In this document: positions 31,363 through 64,000 of the stretch, one piece after another
How positions within the stretch are numbered: position 1 is the first letter of the stretch
How the letters are laid out: each line of letters begins with the position of its first letter
Assembly: GCA_964016885.1 (NCBI GenBank)
Contig: OZ024753.1
Coordinates: 4,960,001 to 5,024,000 of the forward strand
From: Eledone cirrhosa
Taxonomy: Eukaryota
Direction of reading: 5' to 3'
Length of the DNA: 64,000 nt
Notes under the pieces: model-generated
What the model was told of the DNA's origin: nothing
Database searches by the model: none
The model's input: the letters and a program-made list of their open reading frames with translations, nothing else
Translations under genes and position numbers: made by a program

Positions 31363-31833
31363 TCACGTTTTCATCCGGAGACATTGATTAACAACAGAAA
31401 GTAAATGGGTGTTTTCTAGTGCGGCAGCAACTCTTTCTTTATCAGCTAGTTGTTTGTTGACCGCTTGTTCTGAATTATGTGTGCCTGGTGCTATTGCAAT
31501 GTCCACTTTAAAACGGGTTGGTAACGAACGTAGTAATTTAACACGAATGGATAAACCGATTAGGGTGGCCATACTACAATGTGGAATGGTCGGTGTAAAA
31601 GCTAAAGACACCAGATTACTGTTGTTATCAATATGAATATGATCTTCATCAACCACATTTAATTCCTCCAATGTTAGCGGATGTTCAGGATCATTAATGT
31701 TTCGGACTAAATCAAAAACTTCTCGGACATCGATTTCATCAATTACGTTTTCGTCTTCTTCTGCGGGAAGCACATATCTGTCGTGTTTACGCTGATATAT
31801 TACAGGATTCACATTATCCAGTTTATCTTTCAT
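31363..31833 (-). CDS. CIAO2B: cytosolic iron-sulfur assembly component 2B (MIP18/FAM96B), single-exon CDS, 156 aa
   Basis: Diagnostic motifs [56 protein letters not shown] and [17 protein letters not shown]. Full length and uninterrupted. Confidence 0.97.
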
Positions 31834-31959
31834 GGTTTATATATGTATATATATCTTTGGTAAGCCTTCAGTCAACACAAGAGAAATTACAATTTCATTT
31901 GAACTTTTTTTTCAAACTTCTTAATCTCTTCGAAGTTGAAAGTTTATGTAACATACATG

Positions 31960-36646: not shown

Positions 36647-37323
36647 TTAAAGAAACTCCATAAATTCAATGTTTGAACTAACTTCATGTGTAGCTACTAA
36701 TAGAGACAATAAAATGTTTTGACAAGGAGATACATGAATGAAAATATTCAAATTACATTAATTTTGATGAACGTAGAACAAATATTAGCAAATTATAAAA
36801 ATCTTCAATAAAAATGGACAGTATTTCCTTCAGTATCATCTCTACTTCTACCAGAAAAGGAAAAATAGTTTCTGGTGGGTCATTCTTTTCTACTTTGCTT
36901 CTTATAACAGTGAAATAAAAAGAATATTCTATTTCTTCCATAAGGTTATTTCATTGTCAACAATTGCTAAAAGCATGAGACATAATAGAGAAATGGCTGA
37001 AAGAAGGAACTATTAACCCTTAATGCCTTGTACCACATAAAACTTCATTAGCAAAGCATTCTTGAAGAGTATAAAACAGCACAATGACTGCATTGCATTA
37101 AAAATCAAAGTCTTTACAGCAAATTTACACAATGATTTTGCCACTAGTAAAGATACTATAAACATTTGAGTTAAAAAACCTATTGTTTTTTTTTAAAGAG
37201 TTTTTCTGCTAAATCATTAGAGAATGTTAAGAGTTAACCTGGTTCCTATGAGACACAAAAAGGAAACCTTAGCAACAGGAATAGAGGTTTTTTTTTTAAT
37301 GCTCTGCATATTCTGGAAAAAAA

Positions 37324-37533
37324 TACTGTATATACTGGAATATAAGCTGATCCAAATATAAGCCAACTGCTTATTTTATATCTGAGAACTGGCAAAAGTC
37401 TAAACGCCCATTTATAAACCGAGGTAGCTAATTGAAAAATTATGTTTAGATGGCGTATATAAGCTGACCTACCCCCATTTTACCATCAATTTTTTTGTCA
37501 CATTTCTTGGCTTATATTTGAGTATATACCATA
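37324..37533. mobile_element. degenerate Tc2/pogo-type MITE
   Basis: Termini tactgtatatactggaatataagc and gcttatatttgagtatataccata form an imperfect inverted repeat. Confidence 0.55.
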
Positions 37534-38057
37534 TATTTTCTAACAGAGATAAACAAATAAATACTTAATGGGAGAAGTTAAGAAAGCTTTTAAAATACTT
37601 CAGCACAAATTAACTGACTTTTTATAAATTAAATATAATCTTAAATACAAAAAAAAAAAAAATGGAGTTTTTTTTTATGTTGTACCAATACAAATAATTA
37701 TTTTAAAGTTATAATCTAATATACTGTAATATTTTTTATATCATACCAATACAAATAATCATTGTTTTAAAAGTATATCCTATAACATTGTAATGAAAAT
37801 CTTTGAAGATTAAGAATTAGCACACACCGATTCCTTTCCTTTTTCTGTTTTGTTTACACTTGATAAGGAGATATGTTTGTTAGACTGATAAACAATTTTC
37901 ATAAAAAGAGATCATTTTCGATTGCATTTTTTTTTTTGTTTTTTTGTTAATCAATCAATGAGTTTTGTTGAAGTGATTTCTCCACTTTCCACAGATTTTC
38001 CAGTTACTTCTGTTCTCGATTATTTCGAAGAATTATGGTAAAAGGGAGGATGGGAAA

Positions 38058-50083: not shown

Positions 50084-51037
50084 ATGTCAAAAGAAACTAG
50101 AAAATTATACCAGTGTGATATCTGTGGTATATCATTCTCCCAAAAGGGTAACCGAACTGCTCATAAACGTATTCATACTGGAGAGAAACCATATCACTGT
50201 GATATCTGTGGCAAATCATTCTCTGTTAGTTGTAACTTAACTACTCACAAACGTATTCATACAGGAGAGAAACCATATCACTGCGATATATGTGGGAAAT
50301 TCTTCTCTCATAGAAATGCTTTAACCATACACAAACTTATTCATACAGGAGGGAAGCCATATCACTGTGATATCTGTGGCAAATCATTCTCTCAAAATGG
50401 TGGATTAACTTCTCACAAACTCATTCATACTGGAGAAAAACCATATCATTGTGATATTTGTGGTAAATCATTCTCTACAGGAAGTAGTCTAACTACTCAC
50501 AAACGCATTCATACAGGAGAAAAACCATACCAATGTGATATCTGTGGTAAATCATTCACTCAAATAAGTAACTTAATTGCCCACAAACGTATTCATACAG
50601 GAGAAAAGCCATATCACTGTGGTATTTGTGGTAAATCATTCTCTGTAACTAGTCATTTAACTAAACACAAACAGATTCACACAGGAGAAAAACCATATAA
50701 CTGTGATATCTGTGATAAATCATTCTCTACAGGAAGTAGCTTAACTATTCATATGCGCATTCATACAGGAGAAAAACCATATCACTGTGATATCTGTGGT
50801 AAATCATTCTCTCAAATAAATACCTTAACTATACACAAACATATTCATACAGGAGAGAAACCATATCAATGTGATATATGTGATAAATCATTCTCTCATG
50901 GAAATGCCTTATCTATGCACAAACTTATTCATACAGTAAAGCTATATCACTGTGATATCTGTGGTAAATCATTTTCTGTAAGCAGTAACTTGGCTAATCA
51001 CAAGTGTATTCATACAAGAGAAAATCGATATCAGTGA
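50084..51037 (+). CDS. tandem C2H2 zinc-finger protein, 11 fingers, 317 aa
   Basis: Eleven CxxC-x12-HxxxH repeats, mostly with TGEKPY linkers. Candidate non-coding first exon ending at 47427 (c|gtaagt) and acceptor tttcag at 49428. Decayed finger-like sequence continues past the stop to about 51190. Confidence 0.93.
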   Translation: MSKETRKLYQCDICGISFSQKGNRTAHKRIHTGEKPYHCDICGKSFSVSCNLTTHKRIHTGEKPYHCDICGKFFSHRNALTIHKLIHTGGKPYHCDICGKSFSQNGGLTSHKLIHTGEKPYHCDICGKSFSTGSSLTTHKRIHTGEKPYQCDICGKSFTQISNLIAHKRIHTGEKPYHCGICGKSFSVTSHLTKHKQIHTGEKPYNCDICDKSFSTGSSLTIHMRIHTGEKPYHCDICGKSFSQINTLTIHKHIHTGEKPYQCDICDKSFSHGNALSMHKLIHTVKLYHCDICGKSFSVSSNLANHKCIHTRENRYQ

Positions 51038-51549
51038 TATCTGAGGTGAATGATTCTTGAATATACATGTAGATATTCTTACAAAAAAGAAACATCACTG
51101 TAATATCTATAGTAAATCATTTTCCTCCAAATGTCACTAACTAGACATGTAGGTTTTCAAACAGAAAAGTAAGTGTATCAGTGTCAAAATTTGATTTATG
51201 GCAAATATATCTCGACAAGTGAACCATTTAATCTTTGATGTTGAAAAATTCATTTTGGTATAACTGTAATTTTTAGAACATTCACTCTTTTTCATAAGCT
51301 AATCTAGTAATTTCATCAACACACAGCAAGTGTGCTCCATTTATGAAAGTATAAATATTCATCATCATCATCATAATTATCAATATTGATACTTTTCTAT
51401 ATGGTGGGTCTATGTGCTACTTACAGTGTTTTTGTTTTTTTTCATTCATAAACCTTATTGATCAAATAACTAGAAAAAAGAAAAAAAAATGAATTTTATC
51501 AACACAAAATTTAATAGTAAAGTTACTGCATTCTATTTACAATAAACTA

Positions 51550-53250
51550 TCAAAATCTCATTATCTCCATTGTTACTATCATTTTACATCTACTTTTTAA
51601 GTGAAAATGGCAAGAGCTTTAGCTGTTTAAATTGTTTTGGTTCCTCATACTCACATCATCAACTTTAGCACAGTGCTGTTCCATCTCAATGAGGCCATCA
51701 TTAGATATTTTCTTACCTTGTGATTCAAATTTCTCCATTATATCTTCATTTATTTCATTAAATCCAACTTAATGTGCTAGCCCAGCAATCTCTTGGTATA
51801 CTTTTTGTATTGCCTCCTGAAAACCCCGGAAGTCTGCAATGCAGTCTGGATAGCTTTTACTCCAGACAAGATTTATTGTGATTGTTTTTATCTTTTGTAA
51901 TGTCTCTCTCAGATTTTTCAGTAGCATTTATGATCCTTTACAGCAAGTTTAGTTTTACCATCTAAGAATTTAATTACTTTACCCTTTAGCATTTACATTA
52001 CTTTATATATATACTATTGAGATTTTGATGTTATTTATTTTGAGTACAATACCTTAACATCAGTATGAGCTGCACGTTACAGCTGGTTTGAACAGAAAGA
52101 GGTGAGAGAATTCTGGCCAGATACAGCTGATTTAAATGCTAAAAGGTTAAAGGTGCACTGTAAAAAGTGAGCTTTGAATGTAACAATAACTCCCTAGTTC
52201 ATAGGTTGAATGAATTTGGAAGCAAAAATAGCTACTTGAACATTATGCCAAGACTCGCAGGTTATGAGAGGCCAGGAGAATTACCAACAAGGAACAGGGT
52301 TTTATTTTAAAGGTCCTTAACCAGACAGTATACTCTAACAGTTAGTCTAAAACACAATGTAAACTCATCTTGGAATACTGTTCTGGTGATTAGAAAGATG
52401 AAGTAACTTTTCAAGCAGCCAATGGTTTAAGGTTTAGATTTCCTGAAGCATATTTCATATCATTGTGCAGTATTTTCTTCTTTCGAAATAGAAGTTCATT
52501 TTACCAGTCATTTTCAAAATAAGTATGTCTCAACTGTGTTATAAAACTGTGCTGCTGTGTATATCCTTCATGAATAAAAATGTTCAATAAAACTGGAAAG
52601 CAACTGTGATTTATTTGTCAGCAATTGCAAACTCTTGTTATCTGTATCTTATGGAATTTTGAGTAATTTTTGAAATGATTAAACTAACCAGGACTTGTTA
52701 CAAAATTTTTACTTTCAGCACTAGGACTATTTTTTCTTTAGGCCATCAATTAAACTTAAACCTTTTCTTATTTGCCATGAAAAGGGGTGGTTGGCAGTAT
52801 TGGTAGATTGTCAAACAACATGCTTAGTTGCATAGATTTGTAGACCTTTATGTTCTGAGTTCAAATCCTGCCATGATTAGCTTTGCCTTTTACGGAGTGC
52901 GATAATATAAAGTACCAGTAATGCACAGGGAGCGATTTAATCGAATTTCCCCTCCCCGAAAATTGTTGGACTTGTATATAAATCAGAAACCAGTATTTGC
53001 CATGTAACAAATATAGAGTTACATTGATACATAACCTCCATATACAAGTTTAAAAGTCTCCATATTTAGCATTATATTGGTTCTATTTCTTAGCAGCGAA
53101 AGGTCTTAAAGTTTTTTTGTCATTACTGTGAATTGTTTGTGCAGTCATTGGTTTCACACTGAGAAGTTCTGCAGCTTGCTATCCAATGTCTGAAACGCTT
53201 CTAAGTATTTATTGTGCATAGACAGGTTCAGAGTGCATGTTTAGTATTCA
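51550..53250 (-). mobile_element. decayed Tigger/pogo transposase relic, interrupted by a piggyBac MITE and a SINE
   Basis: Minus-strand pieces LFLVGNSPG, FIQPMN*GVIVTFKAHFL and INLVWSKSYPDCIADFRGF..EIAGLAH*VGFNEINEDIMEKFES match the Tigger DDE and C-terminal blocks. The upstream boundary is uncertain. Confidence 0.7.
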
Positions 53251-54309
53251 TTGCAACAGAAATAAATTAGGAAATAAATACGCAGCAAAAATTGTAAAAA
53301 GCACTTTCTACCAGAACTCAGTTCAAAATCAAATAATAAGAATAATAAAAACTGTTTATTTTTTGGAAAAACCTGGAACACTTAAATTAGTAATTTTGGT
53401 GACATGACAAAAAGTGCCCAGTTTACACAACAAAAAGCACTCAGTCCACACTGAAAAGTGGTTGTATTGGTGACGTGACATGACAAAAAGTGCCCAGCCC
53501 ACACTGTAAATGTGGTTGGTGTTAGGAAGGGTATAGAAACCTGGCCAGAAACAGTTCGGTATGAGGGTCACTTGACCTGACTTTTCTCAAATGGGACAAC
53601 TAGTGTGGAAAAAAGTACGACCCTGTAAATGTTGTCAGCATTTGGTAAGTTATCCAGCCTTAGAAACCAAGCCAGAAATAGTTCTGTATGAACAAGACAA
53701 GCTCACCTGATCTGACTTCTCTCACAATGTCAGCCAAGAAAAATTAACCATGAAATCATGAAGAAATCATTATAAATAAGTTATATAGGTCTTACCAATG
53801 ACAGAATCATTTACTAGATGGAATACATTTATAATAAATTCCACACAAGAATACACATATGATAAGAAAGCCAGTTGAAAAGTTCAAAGGCTGGCTATGA
53901 AGGAGTGGTGCTAGCATTGTCAAATCTTGCATGCATTAATTTCAACTCTTCTTATTAATAACTGCATTGTTTCCAGGGACTATGTCAGAAAATAAACCTC
54001 ATTTAGCCATTCCATGAAAGTGTCTTGGTCAGCCAACCCTCGTATAAGATATTATACATGTACCTTATTACGGAATGATGAAAATTTTTTTTTCACATAA
54101 CTATAAAGTGAGGTAAATCTGATTTATGAAAATACATTGCCAGCTATTTACCTATAACATCAAATAAATGGAGTATTTTTTATTTGAAAATGTTAGATGA
54201 AATATATATATGAGTATTTTGAAAGAATAATTTTATTAAAAATATCACACCAATGTAGATATAGTTGAGTTTATATAAAATAACATCTTATGAAGTTATC
54301 CGAATGTTG

Positions 54310-54735
54310 TATCTTCCTGGTGTGAATACACCTATGGTTATATAGTTTTCCATAGAATGAGTTTTGACATTGATATAGCTACTCTTTTGTATGAATAGCT
54401 ACATGTGTAAGTAAGCGATGTTTGTAAGAGAATGGTTTACCACAGATATCACAGCAATATGGTTTTTCTCATGTATGAATATGTCTGTATTTAGTTAAGT
54501 TACAACTCACAAAAAATGCTTTACAACAGATATCACATGATAAGGTTCTGTATAAATACATTTGTGAGTAGTGAGACTACCTTTTTGTGAAAAAGATTTT
54601 CTAAGGTGATATGGTTTGTCTCCTGTATGAATATGTTTGTGAACAATTAAGTGATTTCTTTGAGTAAATGATATACCACAGATATCACACTGATATGGCT
54701 TCTTTCCTGAATGAATGCATTTGTGTTTAGATATA
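54310..54735 (-). pseudogene. decayed C2H2 zinc-finger array
   Basis: Minus strand reads HKCIHSGKKPYQCDICGISFTQRNHLIVHKHIHTGDKPYH[CxxC lost]KSFSQKGSLTTHKC.., then frameshifted [36 protein letters not shown]. Confidence 0.85.
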
Positions 54736-54818
54736 TTACATCGATTTTTTTCGTCACATATTCCTCAGCTTATATTTGGTTATATATGGGAATTAAAGAA
54801 AGTGATTGAAAATACACA

Positions 54819-55217
54819 TCAACATTGATTTCCGCACAATTCTTCCTCTTGTGTTTGCTTTGTTTTGGCTCTTTTTGCATCAGGTAGCATTTTTATAATT
54901 GATCTTTGAGAGATACCAAGTTCTCGTGAAGCTTGTCTAGTTGACTTTTGTGGATTACAAGCAAAAGCAGCTTCAACAATCTGCTTGTTTTCAAAGGTAC
55001 AAACAGTCCTTGGCCTTCCTGTTCTTGGAAGATCTTCGCATGAACCTGTTGATTCAAAGCGTTGAATGAGACTGGATACTGTTTCTCTTTTTACTGACTG
55101 TTTAAATTTTTCTTGAAATAGACGACATGTCTCACTCTTATTGCATGTTTGGTAAAAAGTTTTTACAATAAAGACACGCTGTTCAATTGTCAATCGTTTC
55201 TTGCCAGCGTCTCCCAT
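54819..55217 (-). CDS. Tc1/mariner transposase N-terminal DNA-binding domain only (DUF4817-like HTH, GRPR, second HTH), 132 aa; candidate domesticated gene
   Basis: LTIEQRVFIVKTFY..CRLFQEKF..TVSSLIQRFESTGSCEDLPRTGRPRTV..NPQKSTRQASRELGIS..IIKML. Intact ATG-to-TGA ORF with no DDD/E domain. Polypyrimidine-CAG acceptor at 55262-55278. Confidence 0.7.
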   Translation of the reverse strand: MGDAGKKRLTIEQRVFIVKTFYQTCNKSETCRLFQEKFKQSVKRETVSSLIQRFESTGSCEDLPRTGRPRTVCTFENKQIVEAAFACNPQKSTRQASRELGISQRSIIKMLPDAKRAKTKQTQEEELCGNQC

Positions 55218-55324
55218 GATTAATTGGGGTTCGGTTTTCAGTGCATAAAATAAACATAGATCTGAAAAAAGAAAAAAAGTGTATTAAGTTAACACTGCAA
55301 CACATCAACAAGCATTATTATTCA

Positions 55325-55515
55325 AAGGGCAGAGGATTGGCAGTATCAGTAGAGGGTCGGACGCCATGCTTTGACGCATAGAGTTACGGTCCTTGCCATT
55401 CTGAGTTCAAATCCCGCCGAGGTTAACTTTGCCTTTCATCCTTTCGGGGTCGATAAAATAAAGTACCAGTAATACACTGGGTTAATTGCTGGCCCTGTGC
55501 CAAAAAGTAGAAACA
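55325..55515 (+). mobile_element. tRNA-derived SINE with 11-bp TSD
   Basis: TSD attattattca at 55314-55324 and 55516-55526. Confidence 0.9.
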
Positions 55516-55638
55516 ATTATTATTCATATTATTATTCATTGAATAGAAAATTCATAAAACATAGTTGATCACACACAAATAGACAAACATTTATAAAATT
55601 ATCAGTGAATCTTGCAATGAAAATGCATTGACTCACCC

Positions 55639-55669
<31 letters not shown>

Positions 55670-55894
55670 CCTGTCACAGTCAACTTTGCATTTCATCCAT
55701 TTAAGGTCAATAAAATAGTACTGGGGTTGATTCTTCCTCTATATCTCTTTCTCCGACTCTCCCTATCCTTTTATTGAAGAAATCTGCCTTATTCCGACAT
55801 TGAGAGATGGACACCACCAGGTTTAAAGGTGCCCTAGAAATCCCGTATGTCAATATGGCGCACCTATGACTCCTTTGGGAGTTACCAGGACCAT

Positions 55895-56104
55895 GCAGGC
55901 ATTTCTTCTGTACCACCATAGATGTTGTTCCTTTTGATATACACATTCAGTATTACAATGTGGACAAACTACAGAATTTGGCAGAACACCATGACAGAAA
56001 AGAAAGTCTACACTTTTTTCGTTATCAAAGAACTTGGTAATATATTCGTAAACAGTAAAACAACAATTTTCACACAAAGACATTTCTAAAGCAACTTCCC
56101 TCAA
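55895..56104 (-). mobile_element. possible Merlin/ISXO2-like transposase N-terminal fragment
   Basis: VDFLFCHGVLPNSVVCPHCNTEC..LWW resembles the zinc-ribbon N-terminus of Merlin transposases. No catalytic domain is visible. Confidence 0.45.
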
Positions 56105-56369
56105 TTGAATTTACTGTGTGTACCTCAAATAAAACAGTTGTGGATAAAGTGAAAATAGCTGAATATTTTCACTTTAGTTCAGAATAGTTTCTTACTGTAT
56201 CTCTCTCTCTCTCTCTCTATTTATCATATTGCTATTGAGATTAATATGATGAGAGAAAGAGAGCCCCCCCCCTCTCTCTCTCTGTTTGACAATATTCAGC
56301 TATTTTCACTTTAATGAATATCTTTCTTACTGTACTTCCCTCTCTCTCTCTCATCTTTAATCATATTAA

Positions 56370-56490
56370 TTGTTTCTACTTTTGGCACAAGGCCAGCAAT
56401 TACCCAGTGCATTACTGGTACTTTATTTTATCTCGACCCCCCCCCCCCCCCCAGAAGGATGAAAGGCAAAGTTAACCTCGTCGGGATTTA
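56370..56490 (-). mobile_element. 5'-truncated tRNA-SINE copy
   Basis: Homologous to the 3' half of 29596-29780. Confidence 0.8.
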
Positions 56491-56512
56491 ATGATATGAT
56501 AAATAGAAAGAT

Positions 56513-57250
56513 TCTGCTTCTGCTTCGCCCACTTATTCCTGAGAAGGTCATGGGAGCAGAGTCCTCAAACACTCAAGCAACCATCACCAATTGATCCGGC
56601 TGGATCCCTAAGCAAGACCAGCTGAGTTCATGGATGTTATCCAACTATTTTGCTCAGGGTCTACCCCTGGGTCTCCTGCTGTTTGGTTGTGCCTTTAAAA
56701 TCTGTCCAGTAATTCTTTCCTGAGATATTCTAACCATATGCCCATAGTATCGGAGCTGTGCTCTCTCAATTCGGAATAGTGGCTGTATCTGGAGCCATCA
56801 AGTAACATTATTCCGAAGACCCTTCGGAGGAACCCCAATTTCAGCCACTCACTTGTATTCACAATCCTATTTTTTCAGTCTTTACCCAAGATTCATGACA
56901 ATAGGTAAGGGTTGGCACAAAAACCAAATTGAAGATAGTGAGTTTGGCTTTTACATCACCTCCCTTCTTCTGATTACCGAATGCTGAAGCTGGCGCATTA
57001 CTGCACTAGCTCTTGCAATTCTTATACTTAATTCAGCTTCCTGCCTTCCATTACATATGAACAAAACCCCAACATACTTAAATTTCTCCACTTGCTTCAG
57101 TGGATCTCCATTCATATGTAGAGTGCACTGTGCAGGCTTCCTTGCGAAGATGAGTGACTCAGTTTTTGCAGCACTGAGCATCAAACCTATCAAGTGCATT
57201 TTGGAGATCACCTTCTGACAAGTCAAGTAATACTATGCCGTCTACAAATC
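56513..57250 (-). mobile_element. RTE-clade LINE 3' fragment
   Basis: SAAKTESL..LKQVEKFKYVGVLF..EAELSIRIARAS. Similar to the C-terminal part of the 26700-28900 element. Confidence 0.75.
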
Positions 57251-58029: not shown

Positions 58030-58202
58030 CCGCATTTCCCGGCGCCGAAGATGCTTCGCCCTCGAGAACGCACCCTAATTTTGACAACTAAAATTTTGAA
58101 AAAAAAAATAATAAACAACTTTCGGTCTCCAGGACGCATGGTAGATTTTTGAGACTTATTTTAGGGGGGAAAATGTAGCGTCTTCGATGCCAGGAAATAC
58201 GG
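58030..58202. mobile_element. Tc2/pogo-type MITE with TA TSD
   Basis: ta|ccgcatttcccggcgccgaagatgc ... gcgtcttcgatgccaggaaatacgg|ta; TIRs of about 25 bp. Confidence 0.8.
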
Positions 58203-58414
58203 TACGTTGTCTTCTATAATAATTTAATCTGGTGTTGTTATTTTTTAATATTCAATTAGACACTGTTAGAGACATAATCACAATGATAGCAGCTGAACTT
58301 ATACAACGCGTGCCTTAAAAAATCTTTTTGTGTCATGGCTTTAGAAGCAGTATAGATACACTCAAATTTTATCAATTAAATAATTCTGTAGAAAACAAGT
58401 TGTATCTTTCGTCA

Positions 58415-59175
58415 GTAACCTCGTGCCGCGTCCTCGTCAGCAGAGTTATTCAAAGCACAACCCTCTGTGTTCAGAGAACGTGAGGCCGCCTGTGAGACGT
58501 GGGACCGGCTGGGACTTAGCCTAGTAGACGTCCCTCCTCCTTCTCTCCCTGTTGACGTCAAGTCCCTCCAACGCACTTGGGATGCCATCCAGTGCAGCCT
58601 GGCCTCAGACAAGATCAAGCGCCAGCTCGACCAGCACCGCCTTGCTTGTTTTCGTGCAGCCTCCAAACCCCACAGTGGTGCCTGGCTCCATGCCCTCCTT
58701 CTCCACTGGCACGCAGTTAGACAACCATAGCCTGCGAATCGTCGTTTCCCTGAGGCTCGCCCCCCGGATCTGCCAGCCACACCAATGTCGCTGCGGTTCC
58801 ACCGTGGACTCTTTCGGCCTCCTCCCGCTTTCCTGTCACCACAGTGCCGGCCGCATTCCACACCATGCTGCCCTCAACGAGGTCATAAAGCACGTCTTGG
58901 ACGCTGCAGGCTTCCCTTCCCAGCTCGAGCCAGTGGGGCCGGATCGAGGGGACGGCAAAAGGCCAGATGGCATGACCATCTTCCCGTTCAGCGGTGGCAA
59001 ACCCCTCGTCTGGGATGCCACTTGCACCGACACTTTCTGCAGCCGCAATCTGGTGCACTGTATTTGTAAGGTTCCTAGCAATAGTTAATTGTATTTATTA
59101 TATGTGTTTATATTTTCGTTGTGAAACAATTGTGAACAATTTGTAATGTTATTTTTACAACTATGAATAAAAAAC
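58415..59175 (+). mobile_element. CRE-clade non-LTR retrotransposon fragment (Zn knuckle + RLE)
   Basis: HSGAWLHA, CRCGSTVD..LSC..GRIPHHAALN..LEPVG.DRGDGKRPDGMTIFPFSGGKPLVWDATCTDT, joined to the CRE 3' UTR through an internal deletion. Confidence 0.85.
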
Positions 59176-60789: not shown

Positions 60790-61570
60790 TTAGTAGAGAA
60801 AAGCAATGAAGAATGACATGATGCTAAATGAAAAAAAAGCGATATATACAAACACCCACACGCCGACCACAATTGAATATGGAATGATACGCGATGGGGC
60901 TCCGCCACAGCCTCGACGGACAGGATGGAGAAGGCGTTTCCTCGGAGGACAGCAAGGGAGATGCGCTGGAAAAGCCACTCCAACTCGCGGGGCTCACACC
61001 TGCGGCTGGCCAGCTCAGCGCCTATGGTGGTGAGTAGGGAGGTGGGCCAAGGACACCAGAAGTCTCCACTGCCAGGAGTACAACCGCAAACCTGTCGGAG
61101 AGCGACCGGTATTTGAGGAGTTTAGCCTCCTCAGCCCGACGTGCAGCAAAACCCGGGTTAATCGCAGACTGCACCAGGTTACGGCTATAGAAAGTGTCGG
61201 TGCAGGCGGCAACCCAGAGGAGAGGTTTACCACCGCGGAACAGGAAGATGGTCATGCCATCTGGCCTATTGCCGTCCCCTCGGTCCAGCCCCACCGGCTC
61301 CAGCAGGGAAAGGAAGCCTGCAGCATCCAAGCCATGCTTTATGACCTCGTTGAGGGCAGCATGGCGTGGAAGGCGGCTGGCACTGTGGCGACAGGAAAGC
61401 GGGTGGAGGCCGAAAGGGTCCACGGTGGATCCGCAGCGACATTGTTGTGGCTCGCAGATCCGGAGGGCGAGCCTCAAGGACACGCCTATGCGCAGGCTAT
61501 TATTGTCTAGCTGCGTGCCAGTGGGCAAGGAATGGGTGGGGGGACATGGAGTCAGGCATCACTGTAGGGT
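60790..61570 (-). mobile_element. CRE-clade non-LTR retrotransposon 3' fragment
   Basis: CRCGSTVDPFGLHPLSC..RHAALN..DGNRPDGMT..AVETSGVLG..WLFQRISLAVLRGNA. Confidence 0.85.
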
Positions 61571-61579
61571 TTGGAATGT

Positions 61580-64000
61580 ACTTATTGTTTCACTCTCTCT
61601 CTCTCTCTTCCTTTGTTTTACCCCTTCTCACACAACATGTCTTTCTCTCTCTTTCTGCCAGCCCCTTCTCTCACTGAGACCTTTCTCTATCTCTTACTCT
61701 CTGTCGCTGTTTCACTCCTATAGTCACTCTCTATCTCTTTCTTTTTATCTGCACTTTCTACTTGCCTCACTTTCTCTCTCTCATTCTCAATTCCTTCTTT
61801 CTTTTTTTATCCCTCTTGTTCTCTCTCTTTGTCTCTTCTTCTTTCCCCGTCTCTGTCTTTAATCATATGCACCCCAACATACCCCCTCTCTTTCTCTCTC
61901 TCTCTTTCTCTTTCTGCAGCTCCTGTGTATTGATCTGCCTTTCTCTTCCGCTCTCTCTGCCTATATTTGACCTCCTCCTACCACTACCCAATCTCCTTTC
62001 TCTATTTCTCACCAGCCATATATAAACACTCACTTCTTTTCTCTATTCTCTCTCCTAGAATAAAATTGCGGGTGTGCAAAATCAGATCAATTTTACAGTC
62101 AAAGGGGAAGTAATAATGTAAACAAAAAAGCAGACTCCCCCTCCGACCACAACGATATTTCCTTTCTGTCTCTCTCACCAAGATTATAAACACTCTTACC
62201 TCTCCCCCTCTTCTCCGTTTGCTAAATATATCCCGGCCAAAATAAATAAATTAATAAAACCCGACAATGAAACATTAATATATTCGCCATAATTACATTC
62301 ACACCTTTATAACAAAACATTGATAAGGAAAAATAACGAGGTAATCGTAAAATAGAAAGATTAACTTCGTGAAATTCCGTTAAAAGTATTCGTGTTGTAT
62401 TTGGCAGAGGATAGTTATAAGTATGTGTGTATACATAGAAATATAACTGTAAACATATGTATATTTATGTATGCATTTACGTGTATAAATTATTGTCTTG
62501 TTTACAAAATCATATTTCTAATATCGTGTTTAATATTTCGTATTGTGTCGTCTTGTTTTCTTCCATTCAATCACGAATTGACTCTCGACTCACTCCCCTT
62601 CATTTACTTATTGTTTCACTCTCTCTTCCTTTCTTTTTCCCCCTCTAACACAACATGTCTTTCTTTCTCTCATTCTCAAATCCTTCTTTCTCTTTTTATC
62701 CCTCTTGTTCTCTCTCTTTGTCTCTTCTTCTTTCCCCGTCTCTGTCTTTAATCATATGCACTCCACATACCCCCTCTCTTTCTCTCTCTCTTTCTCTTTC
62801 TGCAGCTCCTGTGTATTGATCTGCCTTTCTCTTCCGCTCTCTCTGCCTATATTTGACCTCCTCCTACCACTACCCAATCTCCTTTCTCTATTTCTCACCA
62901 ACCAAACATAAACGCTCACTTCTCTCCTCTATTCTCTCTCCTAGAATAAAATTGCGGGTGTGCAAAATCTGATCAATTTTACAGTCAAAGGGGAAGTAAT
63001 AATGTAAACAAAAAAGCAGACTCCCCCTCCGACCACAACGATATTTCCTTTCTGTCTCTCTCACCAAGATTATAAACACTCTTACCTCGCCCCCTCTTCT
63101 CCGTTTGCTAAATATATCCCGGCCAAAATAAATAAATTAATAAAACCCGACAATGAAACATTAATATATTCGCCATAATTACATTCACACCTTTATAACA
63201 AAACATTGATAAGGAAAAATAACGAGGTAATCGTAAAAGAGAAAGATTAACTTCGTGAAATTCCGTTAAAAGTATTCGTGTTGTATTTGGCAGAGGATAG
63301 TTATAAGTATGTGTGTATACATAGAAATATAACTGTAAACATATCTATATTTATGTATGCATGTACGTGTATAAATTATTGTCTTGTTTACAAAATCATA
63401 TTTCTAATATCGTGTTTAATATTTCGTATTGTGTCGTCTTGTTTTCTTCCATTTAATCACGAATTGACTCTCGACTCACTCCCCTTCATTTACTTATTGT
63501 TTCACTCTCTCTACCTTTCTTTTTCCCCCTCTAACACAACATGTCTTTCTCTCTCTTAATGCCAGCCCCTTCTGTCACTGAGACCTTTCTCTATCTCTTA
63601 CTCTCTGTCGCTGTTTCACTCCTATAGTCACTCTCTATCTCTTTCTTTTTGTCTGCACTTTCTACTTGCCTCTCTTTCTCTCTCTCATTCTCAAATCCTT
63701 CTTTCTCTTTTTATCCCTCTTGTTCTCCCTCTTTGTCTCTTCTTCTTTCCCCGTCTTGTCTTTAATCATATGCACCCCAACATACCCCCTCTGTTTCTCT
63801 CTCTCTCTTTCTCTTTCTGCAGCTCCTGTGTATTGATCTGCCTTTCTCTTCCGCTCTCTCTACCTATATCTGACCTCCTCCTTCCACTACCCTATCTCCT
63901 TTCTCTATTTCTCACCAGCCATATATAAACACTCACTTCTCTTCTCTATTCTCTCTCCTAGAATAAAATTGCGGGTGTGCAAAATCAGATCAATTTTACA
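61580..64000. repeat. long-period tandem repeat (units of ~886 and ~1017 bp), continuing beyond the window
   Basis: ctagaataaaattgcgggtgtgc recurs at about 62056, 62941 and 63958, and gctaaatatatccc at 62221 and 63107. Copies are near-identical. Confidence 0.9.

Follow-up and report, generated by a model that had tools for sequence, protein, structure and literature searches.

On the minus strand of the 64-kb stretch of DNA that was analysed (all 64,000 nucleotides of it, hereafter the window) lies an ORF of 132 codons that encodes the N-terminal part of a Tc1/mariner transposase (Table 1). An initial annotation, made from the letters alone, had described it as an uninterrupted frame with a bipartite HTH-GRPR-HTH DNA-binding domain, and this is borne out by the ORF coordinates, by matches to two Pfam families and by a GRPR linker motif at aa 67-70. 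Its expectation of DUF4817 and HTH domains also agrees with the HMM search, in which DUF4817 matched aa 10-60 (E value 7e-10, 38.8 bits, exceeding the cut-off of 22.6) and HTH_32 matched aa 46-107 (E value 1.6e-7, slightly below its cut-off).

Table 1. Features of the locus and of related elements in the window (a dot stands where no strand is assigned)
Feature	Positions	Strand	Remarks
ORF	54819-55217	-	ATG 55217, stop 54819-54821; 132 aa, no interruption
Codons 1-114, bipartite HTH-GRPR-HTH domain of DD41D transposase	54876-55217	-	starts at the family's own Met
18-codon non-transposase tail and stop	54819-54875	-	low pLDDT; no family match
TIR-like left end of DD41D element	55628-55640	-	resembles rosa DD41D TIR start
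(TA)n/CA microsatellite	55641-55669	.	directly abuts the TIR-like end
High-copy SINE-like repeat	55324-55523	.	inserted into the element's 5' region
Polypyrimidine tract and AG acceptor	55262-55278	-	first exon base 55261, 44 nt before the ATG
Leader	55218-55261	-	44 nt, two weak-context upstream AUGs
Likely terminal exon	53662-55261	-	at least 1.6 kb; strand taken from the acceptor; relic in predicted 3' UTR
Candidate poly(A) signal	53355-53360	-	from AATAAA list
Truncated left end of TIR-bearing MITE	54733-54786	-	fuller copy at 37315-37535
Fuller MITE copy	37315-37535	.	~220 nt, terminal inverted repeats of ~25 nt
Branch point	54745-54746	.	A7 run between ORF and relic
Decayed C2H2 array (relic)	54342-54742	-	~5 fingers, begins mid-finger, no start of its own; predicted 3' UTR
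Intact 11-finger C2H2 ORF	50084-51037	+	convergent neighbour; closest relative of the relic in the window, 68-76% nucleotide identity

The source of the ORF could be assigned to a family. A phmmer search against 1.84 billion representatives gave 913 matches at E <= 0.001, the closest of which cover aa 1-114 at 55-65% identity and begin at the same methionine; a profile search gave 723 matches, and the best 120 of these 723 reach at most 62% identity. Catalytic spacing was parsed in 84 full-length relatives and was D-41-D in 72, D-40-D in 11 and D-44-D in one, with the closest full-length relatives (P0154, P0155, P0156, P0157, P0159, P0160, P0162 and P0170) all having a spacing of 41. Since 72 of the 84 parsed relatives are D-41-D, we assign the ORF to a DD41D (rosa/Visitor) element. 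A near-complete DD41D element was found at 588-2368 of the DNA sequence L001, with TIRs of at least 134 nt that are 97% complementary, and in TIR length it resembles a long-TIR clade described in PMC5490172.

Searches for a closer protein were negative within their reach. No protein more than 65% identical to the ORF was seen among the matches listed in four database searches of limited sensitivity, and a near-length protein search with P0001 scored none of three candidates, this being a weak search that also missed P0003. Atlas searches returned generic DUF4817/HTH_48 and C2H2 clusters only, and a tree of 30 DNA-binding domains, in which the focal branch (0.30) sits in an unresolved fork, was not discriminating. 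Exact look-up in a protein collection of the ORF, of the neighbouring ZNF and of a Fe-S assembly ORF found none of the three. The last of these, at 31363-31836 on the minus strand, looks intronless, matches Pfam FeS_assembly_P (E value 2e-11) and presumably resembles CIAO2B/FAM96B. Separately, aa 774-846 of P0035, annotated as a Nymphon striatum calcium-channel subunit model, hold a 55%-identical piece of the DNA-binding domain of the ORF, which is either a gene-model artefact or a further exonisation from the same family.

Transposase homology stops at aa ~114, after the second HTH, and gives way to an unrelated tail of 18 codons, much as had first been noticed. The tail has no match to the family HMM, to the DNA of L001 and L002, or elsewhere in the window, and its length is what chance would provide, 36% of local 18-codon stretches being equally open. 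The possibility that it represents the transposase C-terminus in another frame, reached through an internal deletion, was ruled out by the HMM scan and by DNA alignments to L001 and L002 that stayed at the level of shuffles. An HMM built from 90 full-length relatives and run over six frames of the 64-kb window found no other significant transposase piece (best other E value 0.6), and nothing of the catalytic DDD domain appears past aa 114. The element as first described, with neither a catalytic domain nor a 3' TIR, is thus upheld by the six-frame scan and by the lack of a TIR partner in the window.

The predicted model of the protein consists of two three-helix bundles (mean pLDDT 82.8, pTM 0.51), with pLDDT of 85-97 across most of aa 11-110 and of 73 in the linker, and by fold it most resembles the SETMAR DNA-binding domain 7S03 (E value 9e-4), Mos1 and Pax5. 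With its break directly behind the second HTH, the ORF retains the same unit as the SETMAR DNA-binding domain. The protein departs from the consensus at 5 of 29 conserved columns (24 are kept), about the median among 101 relatives. Arg109, found in 93 of the 101, is replaced by Lys, and Arg95, found in 77, is replaced by Gln; the AT-hook arginines 65 and 68 and Arg94 are retained, and by alignment these correspond to SETMAR R392, R395 and R417. Residue 109 aligns with SETMAR R432, which contacts bases and whose change to Ala lowers affinity for the TIR about sevenfold, from 42 to 302 nM (PMC9062482). The main AUG has an A at -3 and a G at +4.

Upstream of the ORF, the TIR-like left end resembles the start of the rosa DD41D TIR as published in Table 1 of PMC5490172. 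No partner for it was found in the 64-kb window, where the motif occurs exactly only once and, with up to 3 mismatches allowed, 11 times (13.4 expected); paired TIRs and a TA target-site duplication are absent from the window, which has one TIR-like end beside a (TA)n run. This microsatellite is likely an expanded TA target site. Since alignment of the 134-nt TIR of L001 to 55524-55660 did not rise above shuffles, the call at 55628-55640 is that of a putative TIR, based on resemblance to the motif.

The element's 5' region carries a high-copy repeat that we take to be a SINE. Full-length copies of it in the window are 80-93% identical and its summed contig depth exceeds 1e6. At 11 of 184 sites this copy departs from the majority letter of 7 others in the window, and its divergence sets a minimum clock for the insertion of the element. 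Without the SINE the TIR-like end would stand ~220 nt from the ATG, and the acceptor therefore lies inside the element.

A strong acceptor had been placed about 45 nt before the ATG, and the distance is in fact 44 nt; on the minus strand of the 64-kb window only 3 YAG sites, this among them, have 14 of 14 upstream pyrimidines. The alignment of a sister-copy contig continues through the ATG as far as 55268, past the exon start at 55261. The acceptor is likely transposon-borne, since the TIR-like end (55640) and the transposase ATG flank it and the sister copy aligns through 55268, and it is likely used. The same two observations leave the idea that the acceptor was the ZNF gene's own without support. 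In the sequencing run X2 (described below), the focal contig and a 13%-diverged sister contig both stop at 55268, and the focal and sister copies may share an identical 30-mer around the acceptor (55239-55268) that is more conserved than the remainder.

Within the leader, the upstream AUG at 55257 opens 24 codons, out of frame and overlapping the main start, and that at 55246 opens 2 codons. The leader is open in the frame of the ORF back to the acceptor, where a 14-codon open stretch is expected by chance in 45% of cases; the openness of leader and tail in frame is at chance level. Rfam gave no matches in 52500-57000.

Taken as a whole, the locus is a patchwork made up of the 5' part of a DD41D element, ~90 nt of unassigned sequence, the end of a MITE and the remnant of a ZNF gene. 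The MITE end scores 58 against the fuller MITE, compared with a mean of 24 and a maximum of 47 in 1000 shuffles, and 74 related contigs in the run X1 show T>G at window position 54780, within the MITE end. The ends of the fuller copy are, as we presume, pogo/Tc2-like. We also considered 54745-54790 as a first ZNF finger, which would have placed the ORF and the fingers in one ancestral fusion frame; this was ruled out by a score of 48 against the MITE and of 17 against the finger consensus. A second MITE-like element, with imperfect inverted ends recognised by eye, occupies 58030-58205.

The initial annotation saw a frameshifted C2H2 array beginning past the stop. This holds for the relic, whose homology begins ~76 nt past the stop of the ORF and which has five alignment gaps in 400 nt, a net frameshift and one stop; the stretch 54733-54786, however, is MITE and not ZNF. 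Conserved columns are hit in 37 of 256 cases in the relic versus 39 of 621 in the 11 intact fingers of the neighbour, an excess decay of ~8 points that is to be read with the caveat that terminal fingers may have begun decaying earlier. The 3' flank of the intact C2H2 ORF (51038-51210) holds further decayed fingers, which align with the end of the relic. The ZNF cluster in which the locus was said to lie amounts, in the window, to this one intact 11-finger ORF and the relic. The style of the fingers, like the SINE, suggests an octopus-like host.

The ORF and the relic are also separated by a break in the reads. In record 12 of X2, which is 938 nt long, letters 416-938 match 54746-55268 exactly and the 415 before them do not, and record 4 of X1 also stops at 54746, at single-copy depth. 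At 54746 there is therefore likely heterozygosity for a structural variant, an insertion or a deletion, that measures 415 nt or more and likely segregates in the predicted 3' UTR. With the MITE end and this likely polymorphic breakpoint lying between them, the ORF and the relic were likely joined by deletion, and the idea that the element had inserted into a ZNF coding exon is not supported.

Other repeats lie further along the window. At 61640-64000, head-to-tail units of ~1 kb with purine-rich blocks run past the window end. Oppositely oriented at 58528-59094 (plus strand) and 61022-61558 (minus strand), two GC-rich open frames that resemble each other look like C-terminal fragments of retroelements; the latter frame has no Pfam match.

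Seven sequencing runs were listed for the stretch, and four contain it, all from one study and none recorded as RNA, a record that was counted neither for nor against transcription. Four of the seven were compared with 53000-56350 at 80% likeness. X1 and X2 come from one sample (1.4 Gb of contigs each) and are possibly the source of the assembly, hence not independent; X4 comes from another sample (88 Mb of contigs) and was selected because it contains the stretch. Such contigs show neither strand nor level, and holes in their coverage prove nothing. X5, a RAD-seq run, has almost no depth over the ORF and is uninformative.

X1 and X2 have exact contigs over the ORF and in both flanks. The exact contigs of X4 are 54674-55261 (depth 8.0), 54031-54456 (6.1) and 53662-53925 (3.1), the first of which takes in the ORF with the beginning of the ZNF relic and stops exactly at 55261, the predicted first exon base; the contigs of X1 and X2 continue to 55270 and 55268. 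Depth in X4 is 0 at 53000-53223, and none of the exact contigs listed for X4 lies upstream; X1 and X2 have such a contig at 55830-56350. Over the ORF, X4 shows the focal copy only, at a flat depth of 8.0. Transcription with splicing at 55261 and extension into the relic, as first envisaged, is therefore likely, given a contig that ends at the site and reaches from the ORF into the relic.

Seven repeat bins have an X4 to X1 depth ratio of 0.03-0.06, 2 SINE bins 0.11-0.15, 4 ZNF bins 0.16-0.19 and the ORF exon 0.58, so that the repeat bins stand 10-20 times below the exon. Because these ratios differ between repeat, ZNF and exon bins, X4 is unlike shallow genomic sequencing, and from the contig ends and the depth ratios we infer that X4, whose library type is not on record, is RNA-seq and that the branch at 55261 is a splice. 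The junction itself is absent from the 15 joints listed, a list that the SINE dominates and beyond which 1295 further joints stand.

The family is low-copy by contig depth, which is a rough bound. In the DNA-like runs X1 and X2, summed depth over the ORF is 29-34 in X1 versus 13.9 for its own contig, and 20-30 in X2 versus 6.6; read as such a bound and not as a copy number, this indicates a few copies at 80% likeness or more. The sisters are gapped and 10-13% diverged: one piece has 16 differences in 160 letters and 11 gap letters, another has 34 in 262 and 12 gap letters. The copy check thus found a few decayed sisters, in line with the early view that the ORF is not a young high-copy fragment.

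The 114 homologous codons of the ORF contain no stop and no indel relative to P0154. In simulations of neutral decay (4000 runs per setting, with assumed indel rates), the frame survived in 10-21% of runs at 5% divergence, 5-13% at 6.5% and 1-5% at 10%. Conditional on the frame being intact, conserved residues have been lost to a degree that fits neutrality (P ~0.4-0.7 at d=0.065). We place the age of the element at about 6-10%.

We propose, with a confidence that falls just short of even, that what remains at the locus is one third, the 5' one, of an old, low-copy DD41D element, likely spliced into a transcript as a passenger exon, selection on its protein being no more than possible. The anatomy, the family, the low copy number and the contig end at the acceptor are what the analysis shows. 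Exonisation is favoured because a site named in advance is exactly where the X4 contig stops, X1 and X2 running past it, because X4 has no listed contig at 55830-56350, zero depth at 53000-53223, distinct depth ratios and the focal copy alone over the ORF, and because transposon-borne acceptors are usual in host-transposase fusions, the transposon supplying an acceptor just upstream of its ORF in 8 of 9 cases (bioRxiv 2020.05.07.082677). It is weakened by the absence of the junction from the listed joints and by the unrecorded library type of X4.

That the exon is neutral is favoured by the changes of Arg109 to Lys and Arg95 to Gln and by the two upstream AUGs. The lack of a listed protein more than 65% identical points the same way, as do the persistence of the TIR-like end, the SINE and the MITE debris, the structural variant that likely segregates in the 3' UTR, and a conserved-site loss that fits the neutral model. 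The passenger reading is weakened because 114 codons are intact while the sisters, 10-13% away, and the relic carry gaps, because neutral survival of the frame is low at 6.5% and at 10% divergence, and because the break comes directly behind the second HTH, the AUG context is good and 24 of 29 conserved columns are kept.

In the history that we infer, the element would have inserted upstream of a C2H2-ZNF gene or within one of its introns, and a SINE would then have entered the element's 5' region. One or more deletions would have removed the catalytic two thirds and the 3' TIR, most of the adjacent MITE and the 5' part of the ZNF gene. The element's own acceptor would capture a transcript from an upstream exon, giving a composite terminal exon of at least 1.6 kb, and leaky scanning past the two weak AUGs would allow translation of a 132-aa, catalytically dead HTH-HTH protein, which is predicted to bind left-over TIR-like DNA, possibly weakly. 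If the exon is a passenger, its frame would have stayed open by luck, at about one chance in ten.

It is also possible, and to us a serious if less probable alternative, that the locus is a young domesticated gene, encoding a selected DNA-binding protein that either stands alone at 132 aa or carries an N-terminal host piece. Such a protein would bind DD41D TIR-like sites, its role being that of a transcription factor or of a dominant-negative brake on the family. The leader, open in frame from the acceptor, would allow for the host piece, although the openness of both leader and tail is at chance level and the leader contains upstream AUGs. An intact frame beside decayed sisters and a decayed relic, a break exactly after the second HTH and a good start context all suit domestication, as does a confident two-HTH predicted model that matches the SETMAR, Mos1 and Pax folds. 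Arginines 65, 68 and 94 are kept, but Arg109 and Arg95 are not. The exon is likely spliced and is the sole copy visible in the RNA-like run X4; however, no effector domain was seen in the protein, no orthologue was found among the matches listed in four protein searches, and only a few sister copies remain to repress. Precedents exist in the Caenorhabditis F-box A2 genes (PMC12062965) and in the host-transposase fusions (bioRxiv 2020.05.07.082677). The further suggestion of a lineage-specific transcription factor in the making, in which a stand-alone, Pax-like paired-HTH protein derived from DD41D took over the transcription unit of a dead C2H2 ZNF gene and so replaced a finger array by a transposase domain, we regard as less likely than not.

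Improbable in our view is a silent transposon fossil, for which X4 would have to be DNA from an enriched library, or else noise from pre-mRNA, and its contig would end at 55261 by coincidence. The library type of X4 is unrecorded, the run was chosen because it contains the stretch, its contigs are blind to strand and level and their holes prove nothing, and the junction is not among the 15 joints listed, with 1295 further. Yet the coincidence would have to fall on a single base named in advance, coverage is limited to the exon with depth falling toward the 3' end, and the depth ratios of repeats are 10-20 times under that of the exon.

We consider very unlikely a clean exchange of DNA-binding domains, in which the element would have landed in a coding exon of the ZNF gene and taken over that gene's acceptor: the ORF and the relic do share a strand and one X4 contig, the excess decay of the relic (~8 points) is of the same order as the age of the element, so that both events were possibly near in time, and the upstream exon could still derive from the old ZNF gene, but the element itself contains the acceptor, 55262-56200 holds no ZNF sequence upstream of the element, the MITE end and ~90 nt of unassigned DNA separate the ORF from the relic, and the relic begins mid-finger. 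The weights given to these four readings are our judgement and were not computed.

Returning to the passenger exon of DD41D origin, a likely expressed and still TIR-flanked domain that is ~6-10% old would offer a snapshot of the earliest stage of capture, in an animal whose ZNF family is apparently expanded. Should it be neutral, the locus would be an exonised transposon relic of the ordinary kind, illustrating the ease with which candidates of this sort arise from mariner acceptors.

Tetrapods offer well-documented cases, and nematodes a single one, of transposase DNA-binding domains captured through splicing, and the paired domain of Pax genes probably originated by such capture. Neither a DD41D-derived host gene, nor a transposase-derived gene of octopus, nor a case of this type at an octopus-type ZNF locus was found in the literature searched, the coverage of which was incomplete; the word 'transposase' is unused in the main text of two papers, one on octopus TEs and one on metazoan ZNFs (PMC12988792, PMC10547256). 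Under the rule given in PMC7386202, by which a domesticated gene has lost its flanking TIR and TSD, the persistence of the TIR-like left end at 55628-55640 would file the locus as a transposon. To intact DD41D (rosa/Visitor) elements it is similar in its N-terminal DUF4817-HTH domain (55-65% identity) and its TIR-like start; unlike them it has no catalytic domain or 3' TIR, carries a SINE in its 5' region and cannot self-transpose.

With SETMAR, KRABINER and other KRAB-transposase genes (bioRxiv 2020.05.07.082677, where Pax is also named as a host-transposase fusion) the locus would share the first step of capture. It differs from SETMAR and KRABINER in that no fused host domain is visible, the catalytic domain is deleted and dead ZNF fingers lie downstream, and in its source, which is DD41D here and DD34D there. 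Because no host domain was seen, the locus falls outside the class of host-transposase fusions on present evidence. The locus has both HTHs and no visible partner domain, whereas the Caenorhabditis F-box A2 genes (PMC12062965) have a single HTH, fused to F-box and FTH domains, under purifying selection and serving as a protein-binding surface; what the two would have in common is the exonisation, in an invertebrate, of an isolated mariner HTH.
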